Shown here: positions 95 through 31,737 of the stretch, one piece after another
Numbering within the stretch: the stretch's first letter is position 1
Layout of the letters: every line of letters begins with the position of its first letter
Assembly: GCF_000018465.1 (NCBI RefSeq)
Contig: NC_010085.1
Span: 1,500,001 to 1,532,000, forward strand
Source: Nitrosopumilus maritimus SCM1
GTDB lineage: Archaea; Thermoproteota; Nitrososphaeria; Nitrososphaerales; Nitrosopumilaceae
Direction: 5' to 3'
DNA length: 32,000 bases
The notes under the pieces: model-generated
The model's database searches: none
What the model saw: the letters and a program-made list of their open reading frames with translations, nothing else
What the model was told of the DNA's origin: nothing
Made by a program: the position numbers and the translations under genes

Positions 95-967
95 CTATTT
101 TCTCCTCCGAGTATGAATATAGCGATTAAATGTAACATCAAAGGGTTCCTCATTTGAAAGATTCAAAAAATCAACTCCCAGTTTTTTCATTTCATATTCA
201 ATTTCTTCTCTAGTCTTCTTAATAAGATTAGAATACTCTTCTTGGAATTTTTTATCAGAAGTGTTTACCAGTATTTGTTCTCCAGATTCTGCATCCTCTA
301 GATATACATGACCAATTTCAGGAATCTCTGTTTCACGAATATCAGAAATATTTACTAAAACAATTTGATGTTTTAATTTTAGATATTGCAATGGCTTTAC
401 GAATGAATCTGACATAAAATCTGAAACAACAAAAACAACACTTCGACGTTTTAGATTTTTTTGTAATTCTGATAATGATCTAAAGATATCTGTTTGTGTA
501 CTTTGAGGAGTGTATTCTAATAATTTTTTTAAAATTTCCATCATGTGTTTTTTGCCTTTTTTTGCAGGAACAAATTTTTCCAATGAATCTGTAAAAAGAC
601 CCAATCCAACTCTGTCATTGTTCTTTAGTGCAGAAAACATCAGAGAAGCTGTTATCTCAAATCCAAGTTCTTTTTTACTCTTTACAAAACCAAAGTCATT
701 ACTTGCAGACATGTCCATTACAACATAGACGTTAAGCTCTTTTTCTTCGACAAACTCTTTTACAAAAAGATCATTGTATCTAGCTGAAACATTCCAATCC
801 ACTCTTCTGGCATCATCACCAGCTGCATACTCTCTAACCTCAGAGAACTCAATTCCTCCACCTCTAAATCTGGACCTGTAGGCACCAGATTCCATGCCTT
901 CGACTAGATTTTTGGTCTTGATATCCAGGTTTTTTACCTGCTTCAAGAGTTCTGTGAGTTCAGTCAT
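95..967 (-). CDS. DUF58 family protein (vWA-like, MoxR-associated)
   Basis: 290 aa. It carries the motif SRFRGGGIEFSEVREYAAGDDARRVDWNVSAR followed by VVMDMSASNDFG (MIDAS-like DxSxS), which is typical of DUF58. It lies 9 nt downstream of the MoxR gene on the same strand. Confidence 0.85.
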   Translation of the reverse strand: MTELTELLKQVKNLDIKTKNLVEGMESGAYRSRFRGGGIEFSEVREYAAGDDARRVDWNVSARYNDLFVKEFVEEKELNVYVVMDMSASNDFGFVKSKKELGFEITASLMFSALKNNDRVGLGLFTDSLEKFVPAKKGKKHMMEILKKLLEYTPQSTQTDIFRSLSELQKNLKRRSVVFVVSDFMSDSFVKPLQYLKLKHQIVLVNISDIRETEIPEIGHVYLEDAESGEQILVNTSDKKFQEEYSNLIKKTREEIEYEMKKLGVDFLNLSNEEPFDVTFNRYIHTRRRK

Positions 968-976
968 GGCCTAAAC

Positions 977-1999
977 CTAAGGCGGATTGATTTTTTCTAA
1001 AACAAAGTCAATTACCTTATCAGAGGTAATTCCGTTTGCTTCTGCCTCAAATGTCAAAATTATTCTATGTCTGAGAACTTCGTGTGCAACAGCTTTGACA
1101 TCTTCTGGAATAATGAAGCCCCTTCCATTAAGCATGGCATTTGCTTTTGCAGTTCTCATTAACCAAATTGATGCTCTAGGAGATGCTCCAAACTCTATCA
1201 TATTTTCTAAATCTAGATCATAGTCTTTTGGAGTTCGTGTTGCATTTACAATATCTGCGATATATTCTGTAACTACTTTATCAGCATAAATTTTTTCATT
1301 GAATTTTTGAATTTCTAAAATTTCTTCAGGACTGATAATTGTATTTACTTTATCTTCTTGTTCAGATGAATTTTTTTCAATAATCTCGAGTTCTTCTTGT
1401 TTTGAAGGATAATCAATTAAAATTTTCAGAGCAAATCTATCAACTTGTGCTTCAGGAAGTTTGTATGTTCCCTCGTTTTCAATTGGGTTTTGTGTTGCAA
1501 GAACTAGGAATGGTTTTTTTAATTCAAATGTGTCTCCGTGTATGCTGACATTTCTTTCTTGCATTGCTTCAAGTAATGCTGATTGGACTTTGGGTGGTGC
1601 ACGATTAATCTCATCAGCAAGCACAAAATTATGAAATATCGGACCCTTTTGTGTTACAAATGATCCTGAGGCATTCTTGTAAATTTTTGTTCCTAAAATA
1701 TCTGCTGGAAGTAAATCGGGTGTAAATTGAATTCTAACATGATCAACATTGAAAATTTGTGCCATTGTCTTTACCATCAATGTCTTTGCTAAACCAGGAA
1801 CACTCTCTAAGAGTACATGGCCATCAGCTATTATTGAAATGAGAATTTTCTGTAAAGCGTCTTGTTGTCCAATCACAACTTTATGAGATTCTTCAAAAAC
1901 TGCATTTAGTTTCTTTGCATACTTTTGAGCTTGCTCACTTAGCTTTTTGATATCTTCATTTGATACCGAATAGTTTACGTGATTCTCTCTCAGTGCCAT
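977..1999 (-). CDS. moxR: MoxR-family AAA+ ATPase
   Basis: 340 aa. It has a Walker A-like VPGLAKT, the Walker B motif FVLADEINRAPPKVQSALLEAMQE, and the sequence VLATQNPIENEGTYKLPEAQVDRF, which is the canonical MoxR/RavA core. Confidence 0.9.
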   Translation of the reverse strand: MALRENHVNYSVSNEDIKKLSEQAQKYAKKLNAVFEESHKVVIGQQDALQKILISIIADGHVLLESVPGLAKTLMVKTMAQIFNVDHVRIQFTPDLLPADILGTKIYKNASGSFVTQKGPIFHNFVLADEINRAPPKVQSALLEAMQERNVSIHGDTFELKKPFLVLATQNPIENEGTYKLPEAQVDRFALKILIDYPSKQEELEIIEKNSSEQEDKVNTIISPEEILEIQKFNEKIYADKVVTEYIADIVNATRTPKDYDLDLENMIEFGASPRASIWLMRTAKANAMLNGRGFIIPEDVKAVAHEVLRHRIILTFEAEANGITSDKVIDFVLEKINPP

Positions 2000-19439: not shown

Positions 19440-19841
19440 CTATAATTGGAAGGTGCTTCCGTATACCTGTCTAAATGTACGGGGTTTTGCATCACAAAAC
19501 ACATCATCACAACAAAACTTTGTTGAAAATTTTGCCATTTCTTCTAAAATTGGCTGTAATGCTTTTCCTTTCTTGGTAAGAGTATATTCTATTCTAACAG
19601 GAGTTTCGTTGTAGATATTTTTTTCAATCAGACCAGTTTTTTCCATCTCCTTGAGTCTTGTGGATAAAGTATTTGGGTTAATTCCTTCAATAGAATCTAA
19701 AAATTCATTGAAATGATGTTGGTTCAAGATTATCATATTGCGTAATATGTGAAGAGTAAATTTCTTACCAATAATCTGAAAAGTGTTGTCGATAGGACAG
19801 CATTTGCATCCGTCTACGAGAAAATCAATCATTTGTGGCAA
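19440..19841 (-). CDS. HxlR-family winged-helix regulator with extra N- and C-terminal Cys clusters
   Basis: 133 aa (TTG at 19841 or ATG at 19832). The HxlR core is CPIDNTFQIIGKKFTLHILRNM...NTLSTRLKEMEKTGLIEKNIYNETPVRIEYTLTKKG. Additional Cys residues are CKCC at the N-terminus and FCCDDVFC in a C-terminal extension. Confidence 0.85.
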   Translation of the reverse strand: MPQMIDFLVDGCKCCPIDNTFQIIGKKFTLHILRNMIILNQHHFNEFLDSIEGINPNTLSTRLKEMEKTGLIEKNIYNETPVRIEYTLTKKGKALQPILEEMAKFSTKFCCDDVFCDAKPRTFRQVYGSTFQL

Positions 19842-19937
19842 CTTAACAAAACTTCACCTACTACTGATCACTTCACGTTCTAATTTATTAACTTAACTTT
19901 CTATACTAACTATTAGAAAATGAGTGGAGGTGATTAT

Positions 19938-20036
19938 ATGACTGACAAATGTGTATGTGACTGTAATTGTGATTGTGTTGATCACAATAACGGTGTATGC
20001 GATAAGGAGTGTAGTTGTAACTGTGGTTGCAACTAG
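19938..20036 (+). CDS. Cys-rich 32-aa peptide, metallothionein-like (not in the ORF track)
   Basis: My own translation is MTDKCVCDCNCDCVDHNNGVCDKECSCNCGCN followed by stop, with 10 Cys in 32 residues arranged as CxCxCxCxC and CxCxCxC. GGAGGTGAT (19926-19934) is a 9-nt match to the anti-SD and lies 7 nt (GGAGG core) before the ATG. It sits in a 96-bp divergent intergenic region shared with the HxlR-like gene. Confidence 0.55.
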   Translation: MTDKCVCDCNCDCVDHNNGVCDKECSCNCGCN

Positions 20037-20143: not shown

Positions 20144-21322
20144 TCAAACCAAGATACTAGTCATATACATTATCAACATACCTAAAGCAAATCCTGAGGC
20201 AACTGCAGCACTAGATAAATTACGATCACCTTCAGTTCTAATCCATTTCAAAATGGTAATAATTACTTGAAATATGGCGCCAGCCCCTATTGAGAGAAAT
20301 ATTACTGATGAGAATGGAGAGTAAACAAAGCCTCCTACCCATGCTCCAAAGATTGCAGGTGCTCCTGCAATCATTCCCATAGCTGTAAGTTTCCAAATTA
20401 CTGTTTTTTCTCTGGACATTGGAGATGCAATTGCAATTCCTTCAGTGGTGTTATGAAGTGCAAATCCCACTATCAAAAATGTACTAAAGGCAATAGAGCC
20501 CAAGCCTACTGCGGCACCTATTGCCAACCCTTCGCCAAAGTTGTGCAATCCAATTCCTATTGCAATCATTAATGCAATAGCTACCGGTTTTGTAATTCTA
20601 GAGGAATCTGATATTTTTATTAATTTTTCACCAGCATAGTACAAACCAAGAAATGAGAGTACTGAAGTTGTGGCAACAAGTAATACTCCATTGAAACTAG
20701 ATGCAAGATTTTCATCAGAGACTTCTATTGCTTCTTCAATAGAATCAATCCCTAAAAATAACAACAGTCCTGCAGTTAATGCCAAAAAGAAATGGTATTT
20801 TGACTTTTTAATTTTTTTAATAAAAGGCAACCACAAAAGTCCAATCATTACGGGAATTATTCCAACATAAGTTCCAATTATTGCAAAAAATACTGCAAGA
20901 TCTAAAGTTGGTTGCAATGCAGGAGCAGCAGCAGCAATCTCTTTTTCAAACCTAGTTCCATCGTCTACTGTGATTCCGATAATGTATGGTTCTGCATCAT
21001 TCCATTCAAATGGAATTCTTACAAGTGCCGTTTCATATCTCTCTAGAAATCTATCAGGCTCTACTGCAGCAGGATGAATTCTGTCGTTAACATCCGCCAT
21101 AACTACTTCAACTGGAATAGGGCCAGTATTCCTTACGGTTGCATGTATTTCTGATTCTAGGAAATCAACTTTTTCAATAGTTACTTCAGGTAACGGGATA
21201 CCCAAATCAAGTAAATCCGAGCCTGGTCCAAAGATGTATGCCACCATCAAAACAATAAATGCAAATGGGATTATTCCACTAGCAATAACTTTGGCCTGGG
21301 ATCTTTTCTCATCAAGTTCCAT
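20144..21322 (-). CDS. ZIP-family divalent metal permease with an N-terminal extracytoplasmic domain
   Basis: 392 aa. The ZIP signature helices are GIGLHNFGEGLAIGAAVG and GFALHNTTEGIAIASP. One N-terminal TM helix is followed by a soluble domain of about 110 aa. Its start overlaps the MCO gene end by 11 nt. Confidence 0.9.
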   Translation of the reverse strand: MELDEKRSQAKVIASGIIPFAFIVLMVAYIFGPGSDLLDLGIPLPEVTIEKVDFLESEIHATVRNTGPIPVEVVMADVNDRIHPAAVEPDRFLERYETALVRIPFEWNDAEPYIIGITVDDGTRFEKEIAAAAPALQPTLDLAVFFAIIGTYVGIIPVMIGLLWLPFIKKIKKSKYHFFLALTAGLLLFLGIDSIEEAIEVSDENLASSFNGVLLVATTSVLSFLGLYYAGEKLIKISDSSRITKPVAIALMIAIGIGLHNFGEGLAIGAAVGLGSIAFSTFLIVGFALHNTTEGIAIASPMSREKTVIWKLTAMGMIAGAPAIFGAWVGGFVYSPFSSVIFLSIGAGAIFQVIITILKWIRTEGDRNLSSAAVASGFALGMLIMYMTSILV

Positions 21323-22373
21323 AGTCTACTTCCTCTGTATTTTTTTGTTCATCATCTTTTACAAGGAAAACTCCAACCCAGCCTTTCTCTGAAAACTCTA
21401 CTTTATGAGCATGAAATAGATATTTTCCTGGATACTGGTACTTGAATTCCATTATACCTCTTTCTGTTTGAGACAATGTAATCATGTCTGTAAATTCAGA
21501 TGGGACAATATCTGTTCCTGTTGGATAGTATTGGTATAGATTTCCATGCAAATGTAAATTGTTAATTGGATCAAACTCTACCATATTGACAACATAAACT
21601 CGAATCAGTTCATCTTTTTTAATTTGAATTGGATGATGTTGGTAGTAAAACGGAATAGAATTTGCAGCATAGAAATTATTTTCAGTATCAAAGTCAGTAT
21701 CAAATCCATTTAGAACCATTACCATTTCATCAGCTGGTGGACGTCCTTCTTTGGGATCTACGATAAAGACACCGTACAATCCATGCGCAATGTGTTCCTC
21801 TAAAGGCATGACATGGCAGTGATATGGATGAACGCCAACAGGGCCTGCCTCAAATTCATAAGTGAATTGGCCGCCGTTTGCACCTACAATTTCAAAGACT
21901 CCATCCATTTCTGCTGGATGCTCTCCATGAAAATGCATGGTATGTGGTTTGTCACCATTGTTGATGAAATTAATTCTTAATAGATCCCCTTCTGTTGCTC
22001 TTATTGTTGGACCGGGAACTGTTCCATTAAAAGTCCAAACATTGTAAAATACACCTGGAGAAATTTCTTGAACTCTGTCATCATCGGCAATTATTGTAAA
22101 CTCTCTTACTGTCTGACCATTTTCTAATTGTGAAACACGACCATAGTTGAATTCTCTGAGATATTTTTCAGGATCAAACTCCACTTCTGATACCTGATAA
22201 ACAGGATCCAGAACCTCACCACTTGTTTTTACAACACTTCCTGTATGGGTAACAAATGCTTTCTCCTCTTTCTGGGCATCAATTCCTTCAGGAAATACAA
22301 GAAAAACTGATGATATGGCAACTACTGCAACAATAAAGACCAACATTAGTCCTGAACGGGATCTCATTACCAT
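21312..22373 (-). CDS. Two-domain multicopper oxidase
   Basis: 353 aa with a signal/anchor helix. The copper motifs are HTMHFHG, HPYHCHVMPLEEHIAHGLYG (HCH plus T1 ligands, with axial Leu), NLHLHG and LFHAH. Confidence 0.9.
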   Translation of the reverse strand: MVMRSRSGLMLVFIVAVVAISSVFLVFPEGIDAQKEEKAFVTHTGSVVKTSGEVLDPVYQVSEVEFDPEKYLREFNYGRVSQLENGQTVREFTIIADDDRVQEISPGVFYNVWTFNGTVPGPTIRATEGDLLRINFINNGDKPHTMHFHGEHPAEMDGVFEIVGANGGQFTYEFEAGPVGVHPYHCHVMPLEEHIAHGLYGVFIVDPKEGRPPADEMVMVLNGFDTDFDTENNFYAANSIPFYYQHHPIQIKKDELIRVYVVNMVEFDPINNLHLHGNLYQYYPTGTDIVPSEFTDMITLSQTERGIMEFKYQYPGKYLFHAHKVEFSEKGWVGVFLVKDDEQKNTEEVDYGT

Positions 22374-22399
22374 TAATTATTTGACTCAAATGAATAATA

Positions 22400-22456
22400 T
22401 AAAGTTAGCCTAGGCTAAATTTGTTAGTCTAGTGCAACTTTGTTAGTACGGTGCAA
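22400..22456 (-). promoter_or_regulatory. Three tandem 19-bp units directly upstream of and overlapping the TATA box of the MCO-ZIP operon; the promoter-proximal unit is palindromic and iron-box-like
   Basis: On the gene strand the units read TTGCACCGTACTAACAAAG (22438-22456), TTGCACTAGACTAACAAAT (22419-22437) and TTAGCCTAGGCTAACTTTA (22400-22418). The 14-bp perfect palindrome TTAGCCTAGGCTAA is at 22405-22418. A TATA-like TTTATATTA follows at about 22394-22402, roughly 25 nt before the ATG at 22373. Confidence 0.5.
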
Positions 22457-22482
22457 ATTCAAAATCAAGGCAAGTATTGTGA

Positions 22483-22974
22483 CTAAAAATTTGCTTTGTT
22501 AAATGAAAGCAGTAAATTTGGATTTGATTTTAGAAAAGTGGTAAATTTTCTTAGCTGTTTCATAGTTTTTGGGTTCATGTGATGCTCAATTCCTTCCACA
22601 TCTTTGTTTGCTATGGAACTGTCAACGCCAATAATTTCAAAAAAATCTAGTAGATCACTATGTTTTTGCCTAATATCGTTTGCAATATTCATTCCTTTAG
22701 AAGTTAGTTTCAGTCCCTGATATTTTGTATATTCTAAATAACCATCAGCATCTAGGCGACGTAGCATTTTAGTTACACTTGGAGGTCGGACATTCATGTA
22801 ATTTGAGATATCTGTGGGTGAAGCATATCCTTTTAGTTCTACTAGTTCAGAAATTACCTCAAGATAATCCTCCATGGTAGTTGTAAATGTATTTTTTTTA
22901 CCATGAGCCTTTTTTATGGATTCTAATCTTTTTTCTTTTTTATCAGATATCTTGATATTTGATTTGCTTACCAT
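22483..22974 (-). CDS. DtxR/MntR-family metal-dependent transcriptional repressor
   Basis: 163 aa. It reads MEDYLEVISEL...ASPTDISNYMNVRPPSVTKMLRRLDADGYLEY...LTSKGMNIANDIRQKHSDLLDFF...VEGIEHHM, which is the wHTH plus dimerisation/metal domain of DtxR/MntR. It lacks the SH3-like third domain. Confidence 0.85.
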   Translation of the reverse strand: MVSKSNIKISDKKEKRLESIKKAHGKKNTFTTTMEDYLEVISELVELKGYASPTDISNYMNVRPPSVTKMLRRLDADGYLEYTKYQGLKLTSKGMNIANDIRQKHSDLLDFFEIIGVDSSIANKDVEGIEHHMNPKTMKQLRKFTTFLKSNPNLLLSFNKANF

Positions 22975-23134
22975 TATTGACTCCCGTGTCAGTTATGGAT
23001 TTTTTGTATATCAAGTTTTAATGTTTTTAATGATTTGCAAGTTTCTAAAAATATCCTCTGTATTTCATATGGATTCGAAATATCTTTTTTGAGATTTAAA
23101 AAGTATCCTATAAACACAGTAAAGTTTCTACTGT

Positions 23135-23647
23135 CTAACTTATGGTAACTAATCCTACTCTCCATGGATGAAATGAGCAATAGTAGTTGAAAACTCCTTT
23201 CTCCTCGAACGTAAATTCGAATCTATCTCCTGTATTTAGTGGTGGACTGTTAAACAATTGAATGACTTTTCCTCCCTCATCGATACTTTGTATGTTGTGT
23301 GGTACTGAATCATCATTTACCCATGTGACTGTAGTTCCTACTGAAATTTCCAGATTCAATGGAGAGTAAAATCCGGCGCCAGTTACATCAAAGTTTCCAT
23401 TTGGAATAACAACTTGCGCATTAACTACTTGTGGAACTGGCTCCATCACCGTATCTATTACAATTACTTCATTTTCAATCAAGAATTTTATCATGTTGAG
23501 AAATTCACTTTCTGAGACAATTCCTTCACCGTACCATAATGCTGTATTTTTTACCCACTCTGGAACTGATTCAGCAAATGCAGACACACCGCCAATAGAA
23601 AGAACAATAGGGATTAGTGCAAGAATCAGATAATTCATCACATACAA
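23135..23647 (-). CDS. Secreted cupredoxin with an N-terminal WW module and a non-canonical axial position
   Basis: 170 aa. The signal peptide ends ...GGVSAFA|ES. The WW module VPEWVKNTALWYGEGIVSESEFLNMIKFLIENEVIVI is at 23456-23566. The cupredoxin part reads VGTTVTWVNDDSVPHNIQS...YYCSFHPWRVGLVTIS, with Arg where the paralog at 8803 has the axial Met. Confidence 0.85.
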   Translation of the reverse strand: MYVMNYLILALIPIVLSIGGVSAFAESVPEWVKNTALWYGEGIVSESEFLNMIKFLIENEVIVIDTVMEPVPQVVNAQVVIPNGNFDVTGAGFYSPLNLEISVGTTVTWVNDDSVPHNIQSIDEGGKVIQLFNSPPLNTGDRFEFTFEEKGVFNYYCSFHPWRVGLVTIS

Positions 23648-23753
23648 TTTACATTAGAGATATTTAACTTTCAATTTTTTTACAAATTAATTCTTTTTCA
23701 AAAAATTCTAGATGTAAAATCAGTCTTTAATGCTAATTTGTTTTATTGTTGTA

Positions 23754-24788
23754 CTAGTTTTTAGAGACATTTGTAAATAACGAGAATTTAGACTTTGTAA
23801 ACAATATTGTCAAACCAATGGAAAGTGTAAAAACCAATACAACAAAGAATCCAAATTCTGGAATTACTGTGTTATGATATTTTTCAACTATTGGACTATA
23901 ACTAGCACCTGGTGCAATTCCACCTCCAATCAAATAGATATTTCCGTCAACAGTAACTGCATCTAATCCATGTCTTGGAATTGGCATTGGTTGTTGTTCA
24001 AACCATCCTTTCTCTGGTATATATGCCTCATTTTCGCCAAAGGTGTTAGTATATCCCTCACCACCAAAAACAAATATTGCTTCGTTCATGGCAGATGCTG
24101 CTAACCCACTTCTTGCAGTAGGAATAGGTTCAAGAGATTCCCAAGAGTCAGCTGTAAAATCATACACTTCTGTTGCATCAACATTGAGTTGTCCAGATCT
24201 TCCTCCAATCACATACATTTGACTATCTAAAACTGCAGATGCAAGATGTTCTCTAGGAGTTGGTAAGTCAGATTTTTTCTCCCAAGAGTCAGTTACTGGA
24301 TCATAAACTTCGTTTTCAAAACGAGTTTCTGTATTAAATCCTCCAACCGCATATAATTTTCCGTCAAGAAATTCTGCAGTTAATGCCCCTCTAGCTGTAG
24401 GCATGTTTGTGCCCTTTGACCACACATCAGCATCTATATCGTAAATTAATAATTCATCAGATGGAATCCATTTATCATAATATCCTCCAACTACATACAA
24501 TTTTCCTTCATAAATTGACGCACCAGAATGATGTAACATACTTGGCATAGAAGTACTAATGCTCCAAACATCTTCGTTAGTGTCATAAACAAACACAGAA
24601 TTTTCAGCAAGTTCTTTGTTGTTCAGGCCCCCAATCACATAGATTTTATCCTCATATGCAATTGCTTTTGATTCTGATCTTGGTTCAGGTAGATTAGATA
24701 GTCGTTCCCAACCTTCTAAAGGTTCTTCAGCAAAAATATTTGGAGTTGTAAAAGACAAAAGAATTAAAAAAAATATTGCTATTTTCAT
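23754..24788 (-). CDS. Secreted Kelch-repeat beta-propeller protein with PEFG-CTERM
   Basis: 344 aa with about six Kelch blades (IYVIGG, LYVVGGY, LYAVGGF, MYVIGGR, IFVFGGE, IYLIGGG, each followed by a W). The C-terminus is NTVIPEFGFFVVLVFTLSIGLTILFTKSK. Confidence 0.85.
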   Translation of the reverse strand: MKIAIFFLILLSFTTPNIFAEEPLEGWERLSNLPEPRSESKAIAYEDKIYVIGGLNNKELAENSVFVYDTNEDVWSISTSMPSMLHHSGASIYEGKLYVVGGYYDKWIPSDELLIYDIDADVWSKGTNMPTARGALTAEFLDGKLYAVGGFNTETRFENEVYDPVTDSWEKKSDLPTPREHLASAVLDSQMYVIGGRSGQLNVDATEVYDFTADSWESLEPIPTARSGLAASAMNEAIFVFGGEGYTNTFGENEAYIPEKGWFEQQPMPIPRHGLDAVTVDGNIYLIGGGIAPGASYSPIVEKYHNTVIPEFGFFVVLVFTLSIGLTILFTKSKFSLFTNVSKN

Positions 24789-25129
24789 CTAAGATTTTTT
24801 AGATTTGATTTAATTAAAGAATTTCTTTTTAATAAAAAATTTAACGTTATATATTACAAAACCCAGTTTTTAATAAATTGAAATTGCAAAACAATTCAAA
24901 AATTTCAATAATTGGAATTATTGCTGGAATTATTTTGTATTTTATTCTAGTCAATAGACCTTAATTTACTATAATGTACAAATCAGATTAAAATTTGGGA
25001 AATATCTGTGGGTATTTTTCAAGTATCATATGAATCATAAAAAGAGAAACTTTTCAATTGTAAAATCAAATGGCATTGATCACACAAACTGTTTTTGGAA
25101 ATAATAAAAAGAAAAGAGATGTTAAATGA

Positions 25130-26542
25130 TCAAGAAGTCAGGATCTCTGCTACTACAGGAATTACTTCCCATAATGCGACATAATCGCCACTTTCTTGCA
25201 TTTCAGAAGCTACTTCATCAGTGTATAAACCATGAATGTTGATTGCTGGGTGAGCAATGCTTTGTTCTCCCATTGGTGGGACAGCATCACTTGGATTACC
25301 CAAAGCATATGCATAAGATGCTACTGGTGCTGGGATAACTCCTTTCTCAACTAGAACTGGGTTCAAGCCGAATGGGTCACCTGCTACAAAGACTGAAGCT
25401 GCGCCAGTGTAAATTGCTGCATAGTCATGATTTACTGCTGCATATACACCTGGTTCATCAAATACCAAATCAATGATTGCTCCTTGAGAACCTCCAATAT
25501 TCCATGTTTCGGTTCCTGCGGATTGTACTCTGTTACCTTGGACAACTCTATCCAATATTTCTCCTACAATGTGGAAGAAGACTGGTTCGTTACCATTGTT
25601 TTGTACAAAGAGTCTTACGTGTTGATCATTTTCAACAAATAAGAGTTGTGATTGGTATTGCTTGTTTTCAAGTCCATTCCATGGTTGTGCAACAAAGATG
25701 TTCTTGTTTACATCGCCTTTGACGAGTAAGTTATGAGCCATGTTTGGTACATAACCAAATTGCATTCCGTTAACAACTGTTGCAGTGTTATGATGTTGGA
25801 ACATTGCTCCTGCATCATAGTTGCCTTCAGGTGTAAGGTACAATTGATTGTATTGGAGTTGGAACTCTAATGCATCTGCATCATAGAATTTTCTGTCAAG
25901 TTCACCACTACCGCTAGTCTTCTCAACCATTAATTTCTTGTAACCATTTGCAGGATCAACGATTGCAATTCCGTACATGCCGGAAAGGACGTGTTGGTCC
26001 ATACCAATTAGTTTAACACCAGAACAATGGTATTTGAAAGTACCAGCTACTTCTGCGATGTAACAATACTGTGCTGTTTCGCCAGGATTGACAGACTCAA
26101 ATGCTGCTGCAGAAATTTGTGATGCGTGCATGTCGTTACCGTGTCCAGTAACTTCATCATCTGGAATTGTTAGTGTCATTTTGACTACATCACCTTGTGT
26201 GACTCTTAATGTTGGTCCTGGGACTTGTTGATTAAAAGTCATGGCGTTGTAAGTCTTACCACCCATAATTGGTAGCTCAACACTTTCACCAGTCAAGTTA
26301 AACTCAACGACATTACGTCCAGAGTTTTCTAGAACACCACAGTCAGTTTCTGCAAATGCTTGAGGCATTACAAGCTGTAAACCTCCCATTTGATGGATTT
26401 GTTCAAGCACATCGACATCCATACTTTGCATGTCAAGTGATTGTCCAGCAATCTGGGTTTGTGTGTATGTACTTCCGAATAGAGTTGCACCAATAACAGC
26501 TACTGCTGCAATTGTAAATAGTGCATTTATTCTTCTATTCAT
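25130..26542 (-). CDS. nirK: NirK-like copper-containing nitrite reductase / multicopper oxidase
   Basis: 470 aa. HGNDMH matches the NirK H-x3(D)-x-H T1/T2 motif, including the catalytic Asp position. YHCSGVKLIGMDQHVLSGMYG matches H-C...H-x4-M. The N-terminus MNRRINALF resembles a twin-arginine signal. Confidence 0.75.
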   Translation of the reverse strand: MNRRINALFTIAAVAVIGATLFGSTYTQTQIAGQSLDMQSMDVDVLEQIHQMGGLQLVMPQAFAETDCGVLENSGRNVVEFNLTGESVELPIMGGKTYNAMTFNQQVPGPTLRVTQGDVVKMTLTIPDDEVTGHGNDMHASQISAAAFESVNPGETAQYCYIAEVAGTFKYHCSGVKLIGMDQHVLSGMYGIAIVDPANGYKKLMVEKTSGSGELDRKFYDADALEFQLQYNQLYLTPEGNYDAGAMFQHHNTATVVNGMQFGYVPNMAHNLLVKGDVNKNIFVAQPWNGLENKQYQSQLLFVENDQHVRLFVQNNGNEPVFFHIVGEILDRVVQGNRVQSAGTETWNIGGSQGAIIDLVFDEPGVYAAVNHDYAAIYTGAASVFVAGDPFGLNPVLVEKGVIPAPVASYAYALGNPSDAVPPMGEQSIAHPAINIHGLYTDEVASEMQESGDYVALWEVIPVVAEILTS

Positions 26543-31619: not shown

Positions 31620-31737
31620 AGTTACAAATTTTGAACACAGGATATTGAGAGTAGTGTCAACACAAAAGTAGATTCCGAATAAATAAAATTTTTATTTAGA
31701 TTATAGCAAATTAGGTATGAGAATGATCTAACTAAAA

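Follow-up and report, generated by a model that had tools for sequence, protein, structure and literature searches.

A predicted MntR operator array on the promoter of the multicopper oxidase–ZIP permease operon of Nitrosopumilus maritimus SCM1

MntR of Bacillus subtilis is among the closest described counterparts of the system considered here, namely three tandem 19-bp units on the promoter of the operon encoding a multicopper oxidase (MCO) and a ZIP-family permease in the ammonia-oxidizing archaeon (AOA) Nitrosopumilus maritimus SCM1. The units lie in a 32,000-nucleotide stretch of the chromosome (NC_010085.1, positions 1,500,001 to 1,532,000; hereafter the window), and probably serve as two to three operator sites to which the MntR homodimer, the product of the gene just upstream, binds. 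B. subtilis MntR is composed of winged helix-turn-helix and dimerization domains, with no SH3 domain and with Tyr22 and Gly59 at the dimer–dimer interface, and its targets are MntH, MntABCD, and MneP. The Mn ligands are Asp8, Glu11, His77, Glu99, Glu102, and His103, with Asp8 and Glu99 separating MntR from DtxR/IdeR (PMC6860424). The operators, single at mntH and mntA and arrayed at mneP and mneS, are palindromes of 18–20 bp built from 9-bp inverted repeats, with T/A at positions 6–7 from the center. In the cryo-EM half-site, position 7 was shown to be an A/T pair and position 6 to be A/T for the most part, with the protein contacting base pairs 4–7 in the major groove and inserting Tyr57 into the minor groove at base pairs 8–9; at mneP, MntR dimers occupy 18-bp sites 1 bp apart, that is, 19 bp from center to center, and the authors state an equal spacing for the mneS and Escherichia coli mntS operators (bioRxiv 10.1101/2024.06.28.601288). 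The enterobacterial MntR consensus is AACATAGCnnnnGCTATGTT (PMC1698941); the paired sites of E. coli mntS overlap and repress the promoter.

Two further systems are relevant. The iron box of DtxR/IdeR (TTAGGTTAGSCTAACCTAA), which belongs to the same protein superfamily, contains four CCTAA repeats bound by two dimers on opposite faces of the DNA, with the symmetry axis on the central base pair, while a one-dimer IdeR site, TTAGGNNNNCCTAA, has a 5-4-5 geometry (PMC8464063). In Archaeoglobus fulgidus, the DtxR-family repressor MDR1 recognizes the motif GTT-N8,9-AAC and controls a metal transporter operon linked to the regulator gene; MDR1 is autoregulated within this operon, and TBP and TFB bind to the promoter in its presence, with recruitment of RNA polymerase being blocked. 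The 1999 work of Bell et al. reportedly described multiple adjacent operators for MDR1. Comparative genomics by Leyn and Rodionov in 2015 is likewise said to have matched DtxR-family regulators of archaea with palindromic boxes and with transporters of the ZIP, TroA, and NRAMP types.

The array, the operon, and the regulator gene of the window are as follows, with the minus strand being the gene strand throughout and the scores being those of the position weight matrix (PWM) described below.

22440–22459, minus strand: third and weakest unit (unit 1 of the earlier note), AATTTGCACCGTACTAACAA, PWM score 6.7, 38 bp upstream of the proximal box.
22421–22440, minus strand: second predicted MntR box (unit 2), AAGTTGCACTAGACTAACAA, PWM score 16.5, exactly 19 bp upstream of the proximal box.
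22402–22421, minus strand: proximal predicted MntR box (unit 3), AATTTAGCCTAGGCTAACTT, perfect 14-bp palindromic core, top PWM score of the window (30.4).
22396–22403, minus strand: TATA-like box, TTTATATT, starting 30 nt before the ATG; the position of the B recognition element (BRE) is immediately upstream, within the proximal box.
21312–22373, minus strand: two-domain MCO of 353 aa, hydrophobic near the N terminus, which opens the operon (Pfam Cu-oxidase_3 and Cu-oxidase_2; PDB 3GDC, E 2e-104).
20144–21322, minus strand: distant ZIP-family permease of 392 aa with an N-terminal extension of ~140 aa (Pfam Zip, E 8.5e-4, below cut-off).
22483–22974, minus strand: mntR, 163 aa (Pfam PF01325 Fe_dep_repress, residues 30–88; PF02742 Fe_dep_repr_C, residues 91–152).

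An earlier note on this DNA, made from its letters, had described the array at 22400–22456; on the minus strand it reads as unit 1, TTGCACCGTACTAACAAAG (22456–22438), unit 2, TTGCACTAGACTAACAAAT (22437–22419), and unit 3, TTAGCCTAGGCTAACTTTA (22418–22400), with TTTATATT following unit 3 and the ATG of the MCO open reading frame (ORF) at 22373. Both the sequences and the coordinates were confirmed, and a recount agreed with the match between units 1 and 2 (15 of 19 positions). Unit 3 does contain a perfect 14-bp palindrome, TTAGCCTAGGCTAA, which abuts the TATA-like box 30 nt before the MCO ATG, and the DtxR-family gene, placed by the note 27 bp upstream of the array, ends at 22483, a measured distance of 26–27 nt. 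The natural register lies 3 nt upstream of that used in the note, giving 20-nt sites at 22421–22402, 22440–22421, and 22459–22440. Tandem Repeats Finder detected a period of 19 with 2.9 copies at 22404–22459, with the score of 61 being the window maximum. With respect to the palindrome, the AT-rich window contains three perfect 14-bp palindromes versus 3.5 expected from first-order Markov simulations; by itself, the unit 3 palindrome is no more than chance within the window, and thus the case for the array rests on comparative evidence.

Phylogenetic footprinting, which the earlier note had suggested, showed the array to be kept upstream of MCO-ZIP throughout the Nitrosopumilaceae sampled, that is, 80 MCO loci, one genome per species, labeled Nitrosopumilus, Nitrosarchaeum, or Nitrosotenuis. 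Upstream regions were aligned on the promoter-proximal palindrome, and a 20-nt matrix with the consensus AAGTTAGCCTAGGCTAACTT was built from those sites. The 80 orthologous promoters share a high-information island of ~47 bp that comprises two boxes and the TATA-like element (consensus AAAgTTAGatTaggCTAAaAAAgTTAGCtTAGGcTAAaTTTaAAt) between unconserved flanks. The position of the proximal box is kept in essentially all of these promoters, its 3′ end overlapping the first TATA-like bases, and either TTTATAT or TTTAAATA follows at a fixed position; in its 18-bp form, the proximal site has its last base on the opening T of TTTATATT or TTTAAATA, and the box reaches 0–2 nt into this element, which starts ~30 nt ahead of the start codon and is the putative promoter TATA box. 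At least one site scoring 9 or more was found in 109 of 113 related loci (one, two, and three such sites in 29, 67, and 13 loci, respectively), and 90 of the 92 gaps between neighboring sites were exactly 19 bp. Given the conservation of the footprint and the invariant 19-bp spacing, the observation is counted as real. The ZIP permease partners the MCO in nearly all 80 loci, and the single locus with no ZIP match stops just after the MCO gene. By MCO, the closest relative is the Marine Group I thaumarchaeote SCGC AAA799-D11, a Red Sea single-cell genome, with 94% identity.

The distal units differ from the proximal box in a regular manner. In units 1 and 2, AATTTGC replaces AAGTTAGC on the left; the second box thus combines a variant left half-site, TTGC, with a canonical right half-site, CTAAC, and the third unit, present in only part of the loci, shows the same AATTTGC-N-CTAA pattern. 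Among loci with an adjacent mntR, nearly all keep this AATTTGC...CTAA form in their distal units; units 1 and 2 thus carry a selected variant half-site and are not decayed copies. Matrix scans revealed no other strong site in the window, where the sole other match above 8 (9.9, at 31693–31712) is at chance level (1.4 expected per shuffle), and no further site scoring at least 14 in the locus flanks of ~500 kb. Other regulon members nearby were rejected on the basis of these scans.

The consensus of the box, AAGTTAGCctagGCTAACTT, is a 20-bp palindrome whose 8-4-8 geometry is that of the enterobacterial MntR box AACATAGCnnnnGCTATGTT; the two agree at 12 of 16 specified positions, the half-site being AACATAGC in enterobacteria versus AAGTTAGC in the archaeal host. 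The proximal site, ATTTAGCCT|AGGCTAACT, has a perfect 14-bp core, and all three window units contain A at +6/+7 and T at −6/−7, as do B. subtilis operators at positions 6–7; the 19-bp center-to-center spacing is also that of the B. subtilis arrays and of the paired E. coli mntS sites. Unlike in B. subtilis, where the promoter is a sigma-A promoter, the sites are located on an archaeal BRE/TATA, and consensus and weaker sites are mixed in one array. The earlier note had called unit 3 iron-box-like, and its count of 15 of 19 matches to the iron-box consensus TTAGGTTAGGCTAACCTAA stands, whereas the units are not of the iron-box type. The identity is accounted for by the shared TTAG/CTAA arms, each unit having two such arms, a single palindrome predicted to bind a single dimer, and an axis between base pairs, in contrast to the four repeats, two dimers, and base-pair-centered axis of the iron box; in addition, the regulator has neither DtxR-type ligands nor an SH3 domain. 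The palindrome is therefore a predicted MntR box, with one dimer per unit, rather than a two-dimer 19-bp iron box. This one-dimer 8-4-8 geometry explains the shift of the symmetry axis relative to the iron box, which the note had entered as a caveat. The 14-bp core TTAGC-CTAG-GCTAA does have the 5-4-5 geometry of the one-dimer IdeR site, and the GTT-N10-AAC of the box may be compared with the N8,9 spacing of the MDR1 motif.

In the regulator encoded by mntR, nothing follows the two Pfam domains, and, as in B. subtilis MntR, there is no SH3 domain. Its best PDB matches are MntR of B. halodurans and B. subtilis (E ~1e-28), compared with 2.5e-5 to 9e-4 for DtxR/IdeR chains, and its two best NCBIfam matches are MntR equivalogs, with the DtxR model scoring 19.8 bits; close orthologues carry the NCBI name MntR. 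Ungapped alignment to 1ON1 and 6KTA placed D8, E11, H77, E99, E102, and H103 at D36, E39, H105, E127, E130, and H131, and these six Mn-ligand residues are kept in 120–124 of 124 homologues. Of the residues that form the dimer–dimer interface, K20, Y22, D27, and G59 of B. subtilis are kept in the AOA regulator. Judged by these features, the regulator is an MntR-type member of the DtxR family and not a DtxR/IdeR iron sensor; the earlier note's placement in the DtxR/MntR family held, and the retained MntR ligands and the lack of SH3 narrow it to the MntR type. AOA MntR proteins have a Lys-rich N-terminal extension, residues 1–30 in the window product, in which the motif (E)RLESIK(K/A)A is conserved; it is absent from bacterial MntR and could provide an extra DNA or protein contact.

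Box and regulator gene were found together beyond the window. In 29 loci, mntR and MCO-ZIP have the box between them, and locus L081, from N. maritimus, has the mntR-box-MCO-ZIP arrangement of the window. Metagenomes scanned with the regulator yielded 29 loci, 21 of which have orthologues of at least 70% identity; in 18 of these 21, mntR is followed by the box and the MCO gene (and by the ZIP gene where the contig reaches), two (L100 and L101) have the box and then an ABC importer, and the remaining one ends just after mntR. At the AOA loci L100 and L101, the order is mntR, a distal TTTGC unit in the AATTTGC...CTAA form, the proximal TTAGCCTAGGCTAA, TATA, and then genes for a ZnuA/TroA-type substrate-binding protein, an ABC ATPase, and ABC-3 permeases. 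The L100 substrate-binding protein has similar scores against Zn (AztC) and Mn (EfaA and MntC) models, all below cut-off. At four bacterial loci (L106–L109), an mntR homologue with 41–44% identity is preceded by AAGTTAGTATAGACTAACTT ~80–110 nt upstream; in L107, the one inspected for gene content, this box is flanked by mntR and by a divergent operon for a TroA-type ABC importer. The box thus accompanies the regulator gene in three independent gene contexts. The matrix had been built without L100, L101, and L106–L109, and the linkage in these loci provides independent support for the predicted pairing of box and regulator. Overall, the earlier note's proposal of an operator array for the neighboring DtxR/MntR-family regulator on the MCO-ZIP BRE/TATA was borne out at the level of prediction, with the array being conserved and traveling with the regulator gene. 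Separately, L107 also contains an ABC-3 permease fused to a C-terminal DtxR-family PF02742 domain (296–1708, minus strand) beside the separate mntR.

Only a minority of the operons have the regulator gene next to them: no mntR is present within 3 kb in 72 of the first 80 loci and in 69 of 102 typed MCO-ZIP loci, with the array intact. Both arrangements, with and without adjacent mntR, occur in one chromosome in L007 and L034. An ancient split of two MCO-ZIP paralogues was rejected, as a neighbor-joining MCO tree interleaves the arrangements and the adjacency is patchy. An unlinked type of mntR also exists (L102, 64% identity, no box nearby). On OZ245040.1 (2,060,248 bp), the MCO-ZIP operon L009 has three boxes at 0.61–0.62 Mb and no adjacent mntR, and an mntR of the L102 type is located at 1.53 Mb on a chromosome of 2,060,248 bp; from the equal lengths and the shared ENA and NCBI source, we infer that the two records are one chromosome. 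With mntR ~0.9 Mb from a box-bearing operon, it appears that the regulator can act in trans. In most loci with no adjacent mntR, a divergent gene for a protein of ~167 aa (L034, 2353–2856; L017, 2357–2857; L026, 2348–2851) shares the intergenic region with the array, and a conserved TTTAGTTTAAACCTAATTTTT element adjoins this gene. The ~167-aa protein was considered as an alternative regulator and rejected; to the eye, both of its terminal segments are hydrophobic, and it has no Pfam domain.

Control of mntR by its own product through this box was also rejected, in contrast to the autoregulation of MDR1 within its operon. No box precedes the AOA mntR genes examined, no site scoring at least 8 lies upstream of mntR in the window, and only the bacterial homologues have a box close to their own start. 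An imperfect palindrome, ATATTTTTAGAAACTTGCAAATCATTAAAAACAT (gene strand), at 23021–23054 in the region upstream of mntR is not kept upstream of mntR in other loci.

The analysis established how the array is built and how widely it is conserved, that the regulator is of MntR type by sequence, and that box and regulator occur together. A repressing MntR operator array is the likely reading, and manganese is, with somewhat less confidence, the metal sensed. An Mn(II)-loaded MntR dimer would bind the high-affinity perfect palindrome and cover the BRE position and the first TATA bases, and further dimers would load cooperatively on the weaker units 19 and 38 bp upstream. Tyr57 of B. subtilis MntR corresponds to Tyr85 in the window regulator, and with the groove contacts of MntR placed at the proximal site, binding should compete with TFB and TBP. 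Occupancy would shut out both factors, leaving the operon off at metal sufficiency and derepressed at scarcity in a steep, cooperative response, and MCO-ZIP would be a divalent-metal uptake system, most likely for manganese. This TFB/TBP exclusion, predicted from a main site on BRE/TATA, differs from the MDR1 mechanism, in which both factors bind. Mn-dependent repression is favored by the combination of the strongest site on the BRE/TATA, weaker upstream sites at the cooperative spacing, and a canonical importer behind the same promoter design.

Several points weigh against this reading. The 19-bp-spaced arrays of B. subtilis activate efflux genes and do not repress (bioRxiv 10.1101/2024.06.28.601288), and in N. 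viennensis MCO1 and its permease are modestly upregulated at copper limitation, with a log2 fold change of 0.8–1.3 (PMC7785015); the latter is not predicted by Mn control and is left unexplained in the favored model. The NCBIfam MntR equivalog NF003025 gives 136.6 bits, just below its cut-off of 138 (NF008273 gives 111.8 bits versus a cut-off of 153), and metal specificity in the DtxR family is not readable from sequence with certainty. Interface residues E55 and R58, salt-bridge partners in B. subtilis, are T83 and Q86 in the AOA regulator, V61 is replaced by K, and H35 and S37 of the recognition helix, which read the DNA, give way to R/S and P. The TATA/BRE assignment is one of position and conservation only, the strict TATA pattern being rare at the other promoters of the window, and among AOA the sampling covers Nitrosopumilaceae alone.

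Three other explanations were weighed. The same regulator and sites could work with the opposite sign, the Mn-loaded array recruiting TFB/TBP and activating MCO-ZIP at high Mn for detoxification, for example by Mn(II) oxidation. Some multicopper oxidases do oxidize Mn(II), and ZIP proteins import into the cytoplasm, the former fitting and the latter opposing a role in detoxification. The B. subtilis arrays at mneP and mneS, where site 1 overlaps the −35 region, are multi-site activating arrays with the same 19-bp spacing (bioRxiv 10.1101/2024.06.28.601288), but they consist entirely of weak sites, whereas the proximal consensus palindrome here resembles the single high-affinity repression site of mntH. 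Furthermore, a site on the BRE position that touches TATA normally blocks TFB/TBP in archaea, and the same promoter design precedes the TroA/ZnuA-type importer of L100 and L101, a kind of importer that metal represses and does not induce. Activation is accordingly improbable. A similarly low probability is given to the same DtxR-family protein sensing iron, zinc, or another metal, with MCO-ZIP serving Fe(II) or zinc uptake and the MCO acting as a Fet3-like ferroxidase. The 15-of-19 match of unit 3 to the IdeR box does hold, the core TTAGC-N4-GCTAA is similar to the IdeR consensus for a single dimer, TTAGGNNNNCCTAA (PMC8464063), and the L100 substrate-binding protein scores alike against the Zn and Mn models. 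In addition, N. maritimus has no known Fe-specific importers, and (non-specific) Fe(II) uptake by ZIP transporters has been proposed (PMC9723733). Against these points stand the presence and conservation of the MntR-distinguishing Asp8 and Glu99, the absence of SH3, and the NCBIfam ranking of MntR equivalogs above the DtxR model.

The repeats might also be bound by a different transcription factor or be a structural promoter element, with mntR as a bystander. The many arrays with no mntR within 3 kb (69 of 102 and 72 of the first 80 loci) and the lack of a box upstream of AOA mntR genes are in line with this explanation. However, the box accompanies mntR in two further gene contexts, one of them bacterial, its geometry and 19-bp spacing are those of characterized MntR sites, and at least one genome with no adjacent mntR encodes the regulator elsewhere; a bystander mntR is thus very improbable, far more so than activation or another metal, and Mn-dependent repression by MntR is retained as the preferred reading.

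With respect to the operon itself, the ZIP start overlaps the MCO stop by 11 nt, and the permease matches BbZIP 5TSA over residues 140–384 (E 6e-4) and the NCBIfam ZupT model (E 2.5e-9, below cut-off). According to the literature, AOA in general retain the pair of an MCO1-type oxidase and a ZIP permease, for which copper uptake or a part in the nitrogen cycle has been debated. Copper acquisition has been proposed for MCO1 and the linked permease (PMC7785015). Two motifs linked to copper limitation in N. viennensis, TTCSGSMTTTGWACYANT and RATTTAAABATAGATTTAAATAATAAS, were considered as the same element and rejected, their sequences being unrelated to the box.

Copper-protein genes are located directly upstream of mntR, at 23135–26542 on the minus strand, as assigned by Pfam:

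23135–23647, minus strand: plastocyanin-like cupredoxin.
23754–24788, minus strand: Kelch-repeat protein with hydrophobic ends.
25130–26542, minus strand: second multicopper oxidase, 470 aa.

L081 is partly similar, with a 527-aa multicopper oxidase a few kb upstream of mntR-MCO-ZIP and intervening genes that have other or no Pfam matches. Just upstream of mntR, the N. maritimus-type loci L081 (5681–5902) and L082 (822–1043) encode a His-rich small membrane protein of 73 aa (MLKSLIIPTFLFLLVFAIGMVSMVEAHPHATPELMNSHSHNMDDENFQEEFFLHDFEHV...), of which the window has no equivalent; the 63-aa ORF of the window at 22989–23180 is unrelated and is probably not a gene. On the other side of the operon, a 38-aa ORF with 11 Cys, MSGGDYMTDKCVCDCNCDCVDHNNGVCDKECSCNCGCN (19920–20036, plus strand), is metallothionein-like and lies between an HxlR-type gene (19440–19841, minus strand) and the end of the ZIP gene at 20144, the short tandem repeats at 19956–19977 and 20010–20034 being its Cys codons. 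No tblastn counterpart of this ORF was found in related loci, including the closest relative L001, and it may be lineage-specific or spurious.

The MntR protein, the MntR box, the 19-bp cooperative lattice, and the archaeal DtxR-family repressor, exemplified by MDR1, are all of known kinds. What appear to be new are the target, an AOA-specific MCO1-type oxidase and ZIP permease, the family-wide conservation of the array, and the presence of a bacterial-type lattice on a BRE/TATA promoter. A literature search found no paper linking MntR/DtxR to Nitrosopumilus, Thaumarchaeota, or AOA, although the 2015 work of Leyn and Rodionov may overlap. A broader proposal, put forward tentatively and with rather more doubt than confidence, is that MCO-ZIP is the main Mn acquisition system of marine AOA and nearly the whole MntR regulon, that the oxidase is an obligatory extracellular partner of ZIP, and that the 19-bp MntR lattice is an ancient module used unchanged on sigma-70 and TBP/TFB promoters. 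No characterized precedent is known for such an obligatory pairing of an oxidase with a ZIP importer.

Few genes conserved in AOA still lack a known role, and the genes for MCO1 and the linked ZIP permease belong to them. The array, and the interchangeability of MCO-ZIP and a TroA-type importer behind the same promoter, would place these genes in trace-metal homeostasis, and suggest that the pair is an uptake system for a metal, probably manganese. If so, Mn starvation would derepress the MCO-ZIP operon in N. maritimus, and the locus would offer a clean case, found in nature, of a cooperative metalloregulator lattice of bacterial type acting on the basal promoter of an archaeon, useful for understanding the mechanism of repression in archaea.

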